NCBI GenBank assembly: GCA_951804945.1
Contig: OX638154.1
Coordinates: 31,434,001 to 31,498,000, forward strand
Length of the DNA: 64,000 nt
Source of the DNA: Podarcis cretensis
Taxonomy: Eukaryota
Direction of reading: 5' to 3'
Position 1 is the stretch's first letter. Each line of letters starts with the position of its first letter. The notes under the pieces are model-generated. The model did not search any database. It saw only the letters and a list, made by a program, of their open reading frames with translations, and had not been told where the DNA came from. Position numbers and translations under genes: made by a program. Of the stretch, positions 41,001 to 44,000 are shown piece after piece.

Positions 41001-44000
41001 ATGAAGGAAAGCTACTGTATATCCAGAAAAGGGAAGCAAGTTATGCTTCATTTTTCTGGTTATTTGGCTATAACTTTTGATAGAATACAGATAATTGAAC
41101 AAACTTTGTTGCATTACATTCTTCATTAAATTATCTTTCCATTGCTATATAATTTTATGGTATTACTCCAAAAAAAAGTGGTGTTATGAGCCATCAAACC
41201 TCAGAAATACACTTTTTCAAAAAGGTTTCCACAATTTTGGCCACTAGCGTAGGCGTATTTGCATCCATGCAAGGCTAGAGAAATGAGAAAAACAACAAAC
41301 ACACCTGCTACAAAGCTAAACGGTAGTGGTAGCAGAATGCAAAACAAGGAACAAAGCAAAGGGAAAGGGATACCTTTACAGCCCAATTCTAAGAATATTT
41401 ATCCAGAGCAAAGTCACACCATATGTTGAATCCAGACATGAACTTCCATGAATGGAAGACCTCTTTCCATTTGCAGGGCTCCAGTCCACCCAAGGCTCCC
41501 TGTGGATGAAGTGGGGGGGAGGCTGATTCTCCTGCCCCCCAGCAGCCCCCAGCACCACCTCTCATGCTGTTTCAGAAGGTCTCCCAATCCTCCACAGTAA
41601 CTCCCTCAGGGCCACAGGAGGAAGGAGGAATCAGCAAAAATAACCCTCCCCACACAACCCCATTTCCTCCAGCGTGGCATCACAAGAGCACAACTCTACT
41701 CTGGATCATCCAAACCTAGAATTCAAGCCAGAGTACTAATGTTTTTAACCTGTATGAGGCTTGAGGCATTGTTTACAGCAGATAAGCTGCAGAGAGATGC
41801 CAAACAAATAATCATAAGAGTGCTGTCTGCAGACTTTTCCCGGTCATTCTAATCCCTCACAGACAGAGCGTACTCGTTGCAGTTGTGTACCTGGGGTCTT
41901 TGTTTCATTGGGGATGATGCAGCGGACAAAATGAGGCTGGGTAGCACGCAAATTGGTCATCAGCTTGTTCAGGTTTTCCTATAAGGCAGACATACAGGGT
42001 TAAGTCACCTCACAGGCTCCCAAGTCCACGTCTGAGCAAAAGTCAAAGAAGCTCATTTTAACCTTTAAAGCCCTCTGCAGCTTAGGATGCAGATATCTGA
42101 AGGGCTGCCTCCTCTCACAGAAGCCTGTCCCATTATGATGATCTGCGTTTGAGGCCTGACTTTGGGTATCCCCATCACCCAGCTGTTTCTAAGGGCCTCA
42201 GGCACAGATTATTATTTCCTGCCCAACCCTGCTCCCTTATATCCCTTTATCTGGAGATTCTAGGAAGTGATTCTGGGACCCTGTGTGTTAATTACTGAGC
42301 AGCAATTAAAATCCATACACAGGTTAAGTGGTGGGCCTGGGGAAGGTTCAACTCCCCTCTAAGGGGCTCTGAAAATTGGACCGCTCCCTTTCCCTCCTGA
42401 CCACAGCCCTCTATCCTCCCACCACAGCACTCCCACTTTTTATGTGAATGGGGCAGGTCTGCTTTAAGCAAACAACTGGCATATTTAGTTTGGCCATCCA
42501 ATCTATTAAAAAACAGCAACCCACTACTGCCCCATCAATGCTACTAAATAACATGTTGCTGCTTCTGTACTCTCCACATGCCCAGTTTACCTTGCAATCT
42601 AAAACCATTCCTAACCCTCTTTGCTTTTAACCTTGTGGTTTCTGGATCATTCACTTGCGAAGCACTGTCTCTCAGTCAGACGGTTGCTGCTCTGCTAAGT
42701 GGTTCAGTGTGTGGAGTGTTGTGTCCAGCTAACTCCCTCTCCCAACACTGGAAAGGCCAAGGGCCTGTTGCTCCGACCCTTGTAAGATCCACATTTCTTT
42801 TCTTCTTCCCAAGGGTTCTCCTTCCCGCAGTCAAGAGTGAGGAGGAGAGAAGTAGCACAGACTTAAAGTGATGTTCATGTAATAAATTATCTAAACATCA
42901 CTGCAAGTCTTAACTGCCTCTCCCTCAGCAACGGAGAAGCAGCCAGGAACCATGTAGCGCAGACATCACAGGGGCGGAAATAAGCATTACTCTACTACAA
43001 ATGGAACCTGACTCCTCTGCATTCTAGCATTATTCCTATTCAAATGCTGATACGAAGATCACCAAGAGCTGGCAATACAGGGATAAGGTAAAGGTAAAGG
43101 GACCCCTGACCAATAGGTCCAGTCGTGGCCGACTCTGGGGTTGCGGCGCTCATCTCGCTTTATTGGCCGAGGGAGCCGGTGTACAGCTTCCGGGTCATGT
43201 GGCCAGCATGACTAAGCCGCTTCTGGAGAACCAGAGCAGCACACGGAAACGCCGTTTACCTTCCCGCCAGAGCAGTACCTATTTATCTACTTGCACTTTG
43301 ACGTGCTTTCGAACTGCTAGGTTGGCAGGAGCAGGGACCGAGCAACGGGAGCTCACCCCGTCATGGGGATTCGAACCACCGACCTTCCGATCAGCAAGTC
43401 CTAGGCTCTGTGGTTTAACCCACAACGCCACCCGCGTCCCTACAATACAGGGATAGTTACAGCTGTTATTCCTGAGCAATAATATTATCAAAAAGGGAGA
43501 GCGCTATGGGCCAACTGAGGGAAGAATAGCCAAGCCCCAAAAGTCCTTAGTGTCTGCCTGGTGTTCCAAGACTTCACGTTCAGGTTATTGCCTGGAAGAA
43601 GTGTCGTGTGTATACACAGAGAGAGCCAAGTGAAATTCGAGCCAGCAGTTCTGCTTACCATGGGGAGTGAGCAAACACTTACCTTATGCAGCTGGGACAC
43701 AGTTTGGAACGAAGCTGCCTTCTTGCGCTTCTCTTTGCCACCTGTCCTGGTTGCATCATCTGCCCAACGAGATATCAGTTTATTCCCTTAATGGTGTTCA
43801 TTTGGTTCAGGTCCTTGGTTGGTTCCCAAGAGCTGCGAGACCAACCCTATTGCTCAAGTTATAGGACAATTAATTCTCCAGCTCTATTGAATACCCAGGC
43901 CCAGAGAATGGTCTGAACTCTACACATCTCTGAAGCTAAGCAGGGGTCAGCCTGGCCACTTTCTGGCTTTTCAGATAACCTTACATATTCTGTATTTAGT

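Follow-up and report, generated by a model that had tools for sequence, protein, structure and literature searches.

Whether the Pol III promoters of SINEs drive cellular miRNAs at their native loci has been argued since a claim of this kind was made for C19MC and then rejected. The C19MC model, with human miRNAs driven by Alu elements, was reportedly put forward by Borchert in 2006. The Pol III claim was overturned, intronic processing of Pol II transcripts taking its place (PMC2691840). Gu (2009) described miRNA candidates located at most 200 nt behind Alu elements and selected with a T-run filter, and stress co-induction was reported for three of them (PMC3087558). The idea of miRNAs driven by SINE Pol III promoters is an old one, supported in plasmid assays and rejected for C19MC, and the lizard miR-499 locus described here is a new candidate. 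With the Alu-upstream human miRNAs it shares a sense SINE with A and B boxes shortly upstream of the hairpin and the selection by absence of T4; it differs in SINE family and taxon, and in that its hairpin is an ancient conserved myomiR rather than a young one. 

Two other described systems are close. The tRNA-miRNA units of MHV68 also place a pre-miRNA behind a tRNA-like type 2 promoter, such that a single transcript could cover both, but an MHV68-type reporter is about 150 nt long with the terminator directly behind the hairpin (PMC3141230), whereas the lizard unit would measure about 840 nt. In a reporter of this type T2AT3 cut read-through (PMC3141230), and the lizard locus has a T2AT3 between promoter and hairpin. 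In medaka, miR-499 has been uncoupled from MYH7B/MYH14, the host gene being lost and the cis-elements kept (PMC3716903), while the lizard hairpin is flanked by host exons; the likeness lies in host independence, which is hypothetical in the lizard. No paper on the lizard miR-499 locus was found among the matches listed in literature searches with subscription journals outside their scope. A conserved miRNA present once in the genome, with a young intact SINE shortly before it and with comparable relatives, would make a clean test case, and a functional promoter here would be a second promoter gained in nature, open to comparison with relatives lacking the insertion.

The window, that is, the whole 64-kb stretch of Podarcis cretensis DNA that was analysed, includes on its minus strand a sarcomeric myosin heavy chain gene with motifs running from 62375 to 20707. 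The only Rfam RNA family found in the whole window was mir-499 (RF00745), at 42926-42847 on the minus strand, scoring 97.4 bits (cut-off 60) over the full model (1-80). A genome search gave one locus only; a second match was this hairpin read on the other strand, and a second miR-499 locus was rejected. The features of the locus are as follows.

43683..43760, minus strand: upstream exon of the myosin host gene, loop 2 region, placed by its translation, the GT donor at 43682 and myosin motifs (3′ end at 43683 exact, 5′ end approximate)
41979..43682, minus strand: GT-AG intron of 1704 nt containing the SINE and miR-499, donor at 43682 and acceptor AG at 41980-41979
43443..43455, minus strand: 5′ target-site duplication, 13 bp, beginning with T
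43086..43440, minus strand: full-length Sauria/Squam1 SINE with a tail of (ACCTTT)n type, from sequence features (tail type as in PMC6007223, Table 2)
43420..43430, minus strand: A box, TGGCGTTGTGG, from the sequence
43367..43377, minus strand: B box, GGTTCGAATCC, perfect, from the sequence
43159..43164, minus strand: AATAAA inside the SINE, sense to MYH7B, about 240 nt before the hairpin
43073..43085, minus strand: 3′ target-site duplication, 13 bp
42997..43001, minus strand: T3GT, of a near-inactive class of non-canonical terminators
42978..42983, minus strand: T2AT3, non-canonical Pol III terminator motif of the strongest class, about 50 nt ahead of the hairpin
42847..42926, minus strand: pre-miR-499 hairpin (RF00745), by the Rfam covariance model
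42893..42897, minus strand: TGT3, partial terminator motif where the 5′ arm of the hairpin ends
42881..42886, minus strand: T3AT2, partial terminator motif in the hairpin loop
42601..42604, minus strand: first canonical T4, 243 nt beyond the hairpin

TGT3 and T3AT2 were assigned to arm and loop by the usual arm boundaries of miR-499. The intron acceptor is followed by an exon coding for ENLNKLM, and the hairpin lies in sense orientation inside the intron, as expected for miR-499 in sarcomeric myosin (MYH7B/MYH14) genes. The host gene is called MYH7B-type because miR-499 is the intronic miRNA of MYH7B (PMC3716903, PMC3424578), and not from a tree. In the mouse, an upstream Myh7b promoter drives expression of Myh7b and miR-499 (PMC3424578). 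Within an 840-nt RNA starting at the lizard SINE the hairpin stem was predicted to be folded, with a mean pair probability of 0.83 and a core stem near 1.

We take the element to be a Sauria/Squam1 SINE from the following features. The element has about 350 nt, a tRNA-type head containing both boxes, an ACCTTT-type tail and a 13-bp duplication beginning with T; this length, the tail type and the short T-initial target duplication are given for Sauria SINEs in PMC6007223. A genuine tRNA gene at its head was ruled out, ARAGORN finding none in the window. The sequence-only reading had described a full-length sense Sauria SINE ending about 160 nt before miR-499, an A-box-like sequence at 43430-43420, a perfect B box at 43377-43367 and, by eye, no T4 until 42604-42601. 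All of its positional statements were correct: the SINE spans 43440-43086 on the minus strand within its 13-bp duplication, its 3′ end at 43086 is 159 nt from the start of the hairpin, and the minus-strand runs of at least four T fall at 43494-43490 and then at 42604-42601, so that the computed scan from 43490 to 42604 leaves no overlooked T4 ahead of the hairpin.

The SINE is a high-copy repeat, with 40 scored matches including 39 other copies at 94-96% identity. Copy density was estimated by BLAST in a genome sample of 100 evenly spaced 10-kb stretches (1 Mb), which gave 79 Squam1 matches, of which 61 include the 5′ head and 58 span the full length. A density of about 58 full-length copies per Mb extrapolates over 1.5 Gb to some 87,000 copies, which falls inside the range of 65,000-131,000 given for lacertids (PMC10670947). 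In the A box at miR-499 one C has become T at an unconstrained position, a change seen in none of 22 sampled copies of the subfamily; the box lies 42 nt from the B box. Since 32 of the 58 sampled full-length copies have the identical B-box 11-mer and 23 of the 58 have both boxes intact, the promoter beside miR-499 is nothing special within its family. In length, head, tail, duplication and a copy number of the order of 10^5 the element does not differ from the Sauria/Squam1 SINEs of squamates; its place alone is unusual.

Most probably, this SINE is an ordinary neutral Squam1 insertion and a silent passenger, with miR-499 made from the Pol II pre-mRNA of MYH7B. The miRNA would be cut from the host gene's pre-mRNA, and the SINE copy would normally be without Pol III transcription, to judge from mammalian data: a cell line expresses between 149 and 425 Alu loci, no more than 0.1% of the copies, activity depends on the 5′ flank, and sense copies hosted by genes are less associated with Pol III (PMC4333407).

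The strongest rival is an accidental leak, in which the SINE would be one of the few copies prone to transcription, at any rate under stress, and a minority of its Pol III transcripts would pass the weak stops; from these Drosha would cut a little miR-499, free of MYH7B and with no selected role. This is unlikely, with a real outside chance. The intact B box, the family-type A box, their 42-nt spacing, the lack of T4 down to 42604 and the stem predicted to fold in the 840-nt RNA all agree with it. Alu elements and downstream miRNA candidates were co-induced by heat shock (PMC3087558), and cloned Pol III elements gave expression of miR-566 and miR-128-2 (Monteys 2010, cited in PMC3351155). Against it stand the roughly 0.1% of Alu copies active per cell type and the reduced Pol III association of gene-hosted sense copies (PMC4333407), the rejection of the same model for C19MC, where TTATT was noted as a terminator (PMC2691840), and three partial terminators in the path of the transcript.

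These terminators qualify the earlier claim that no terminator intervenes until past the hairpin, which holds for T4 but not for T2AT3 before the hairpin and TGT3 and T3AT2 inside it. Vertebrate Pol III also terminates at interrupted T runs, T2VT3 and T3VT2 ranking above TVT3 and T3VT; motifs ending in T3 are much stronger terminators, and T3AT2 is supposedly strong (PMC3141230). A transcript would probably meet its first stop at T2AT3 (42983-42978), about 460 nt after the SINE start. In an MHV68-derived reporter with this motif behind the tRNA-like promoter and ahead of the pre-miRNA, termination was intermediate; T5 itself was leaky in that reporter in HeLa cells (PMC3141230). Termination at TATTT reached 50% in vitro and 42% in cells, and at TGTTT 40% and 20%, respectively (PMC8466645). 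The product of these two human-assay values, taken in other contexts and not in a lizard, sets a read-through ceiling of about 30-46%, and the true read-through is likely to be lower. Were the SINE active, at least half of its transcripts would end at T2AT3 or, within the hairpin, at TGT3 or T3AT2, and a stop inside the hairpin would leave no pre-miRNA. The motifs thus weaken the Pol III model without killing it, being leaky and known from human figures, and a read-through of up to 30-46% is itself a point against a strictly silent passenger. The case shows that a scan for T4 only overstates Pol III read-through, and stop motifs within hairpins would limit Pol III-driven miRNAs generally. Among 30 other miRNA hairpins, T4 occurred in 6 and non-canonical stop motifs in 14.

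The proposal that a Pol III transcript could reach the hairpin stands insofar as the layout permits it and the stem is predicted to fold, and is tempered by the partial terminators in its path. In its sequence the locus has an intact type 2 promoter upstream on the same strand, as do the Pol III units in which a tRNA-like promoter precedes a miRNA. The stretch from promoter to hairpin end is not free of stops, containing T2AT3, TGT3 and T3AT2, nor is the unit compact with a terminator just behind the hairpin, T4 lying 243 nt past it at the end of a unit of about 840 nt. These two sequence features of the group are missing. The locus is a candidate rather than an established Pol III miRNA unit and would resemble, at most, a leaky read-through unit of the Alu type. 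The proposal of a host-independent miR-499 unit, accident or exaptation, keeps the accidental leak as possible and loses the exaptation, which is without support. If the idea were true, Pol III transcription from a lineage-specific SINE would drive a deeply conserved myomiR where it natively resides, and these lizards would have a MYH7B-independent, stress-inducible source of miR-499 outside slow and cardiac muscle; this is very unlikely. On the sequence, the Pol III route to miR-499 is testable but unlikely, with no sign of use or of selection.

The arrangement of the locus was compared with what chance would give. Between the SINE start and the first T4 the median distance in the 58 sampled copies is 390 nt; at miR-499 the T4-free run is 836 nt, longer than in any of them (maximum 725). 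A run of 594 nt suffices to cover the hairpin and is attained by 9 of the 58, and a T4-free spacer of 160 nt is found at 37% of random positions. The start of a hairpin would fall within reach of a T4-free zone behind a SINE for 0.12-0.26% of positions, and an 80-nt stretch would be covered in full for 0.07-0.14% (in each case, from copies with both boxes to all copies). With a chance of 0.07-0.26% per miRNA and an assumed number of 300 miRNA loci, 0.2-0.8 such layouts are expected. A direct check used 30 loci above the cut-off of let-7, mir-10, mir-133 and mir-30, opposite-strand duplicates and one sub-threshold match having been dropped and several loci lying in shared clusters. A sense SINE upstream, and likewise the miR-499 layout, was found at none of these 30 loci; this and the record T4-free run speak against the passenger reading. 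Squam1 occurs within 1.5 kb of 4 of the 30, two of these being full sense copies downstream. When the 370 inserted bases are subtracted, the T4-free stretch ahead of miR-499 is 193 nt, which is matched by 6 of the 30 loci. Since the intron was T4-poor before the insertion, the long run would be a chance gap lengthened by the T4-free body of the SINE. At any one locus the layout is rare, but a case of it in a whole genome is no surprise.

The SINE might instead act on the host transcript, the sense AATAAA or bound TFIIIC leading to early cleavage or pausing of MYH7B pre-mRNA and to less miR-499, an effect we consider highly improbable. The hexamer at 43164-43159, ahead of the hairpin, may possibly be a weak intronic poly(A) signal. 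It is a subfamily feature, found in 13 of the 22 sampled copies of the subfamily and in 17 of the 58 full-length ones, and by eye no U- or GU-rich element follows it. U1 usually suppresses cleavage near a 5′ splice site, and the AATAAA, about 520 nt from that site, lies within the usual range of this suppression. On the other side, poly(A) signals imported by SINEs have been reported in the dog (PMC11699766).

The silent-passenger reading also fits the way in which the copy has changed. Divergence was measured from the majority of 22 sampled copies with at least 88% identity, out of 58. The miR-499 SINE shows 12 differences, of which 9 fall on the 64 CpG positions and 3 on the 289 remaining ones (Fisher p 2e-5), and 8 of 32 CpGs are now TG or CA. 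Such CpG-biased change is the usual trace of germline methylation, and the SINE appears to evolve as a methylated neutral copy would. CpG decay was rejected as proof of silence and kept as a sign that the copy is treated like any other, because DNA methylation alone fails to exclude Pol III from SINEs: methylated SINEs can hold Pol III, and it is reportedly histone methylation that restrains their Pol III transcription (PMC4382998). The 80-nt promoter head has 6 changes against a mean of 5.1 in the 22 copies, and selection on the promoter was rejected, the head changes equalling the family mean. The copy as a whole is among the least changed, only 1 of the 22 having as few as 12 differences, which counts against an ordinary passenger. 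In the body (43360-43088, minus strand) it has 6 differences, while the lowest of the other 22 copies has 8 and their mean is 14.9; this low divergence is unexplained, whether by younger age, gene conversion or chance.

The insertion was compared using contigs from 4 of 24 listed runs (X2, X3, X8 and X13, from organisms A, B, D and G in 3 studies), X2 being possibly from the window's own species and hence not independent. Contigs from the unique flanks enter both SINE ends by 19-37 letters in X2, X3 and X8, one junction reaching the bar of at least 31 letters; in X13 one contig ends 6 letters into the SINE, a weak indication. No empty-site joint was present among the 15 listed of 547 joints. 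A private or very recent insertion is disfavoured by the contigs entering both ends in 3 of the 4 runs and by the lack of an empty-site joint among those listed. Flank divergence is 1.5% for B and D and 2.8% for G, which predicts 2-4 non-CpG changes per lineage; 3 were observed, and the SINE therefore fits neutrality. All 4 substitutions in the long X2 contig fall outside 43085-42604. By these comparisons the insertion looks shared and neutral. Sharing is ordinary, since about half of the Squam1 loci are common to close lacertid species (50,016 of approximately 101,500 compared; PMC10670947, Table 2).

That the SINE was kept in the lizard lineage because it lets Pol III transcribe miR-499 under stress or in particular tissues, independently of the host gene, is next to incredible: an apparently shared insertion (contigs into both ends in 3 of 4 runs), low total divergence and a medaka miR-499 that can be uncoupled from its host (PMC3716903) are in its favour, but sharing of this kind is common, the shortage of changes is confined to the body (6, where the sampled copies average 14.9) and does not extend to the head, the non-CpG changes are those of a neutral sequence, and the partial terminators are still in place.

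Other Squam1 copies deserve mention. A full-length sense copy begins 329 nt after a miR-133 hairpin (L161, G000:C3:121455366-121455438) and another 288 nt after a miR-30 hairpin (L167, G000:C7:84420493-84420563). The window itself has a second full-length Squam1 at 10219-9863 on the minus strand, 81% identical to the miR-499 copy and likely of another subfamily. Many sampled copies at about 81% identity (L048, L092, L088, L117 and others) share a near-identical head and form a separate, homogeneous Squam1 subfamily that is likely young.
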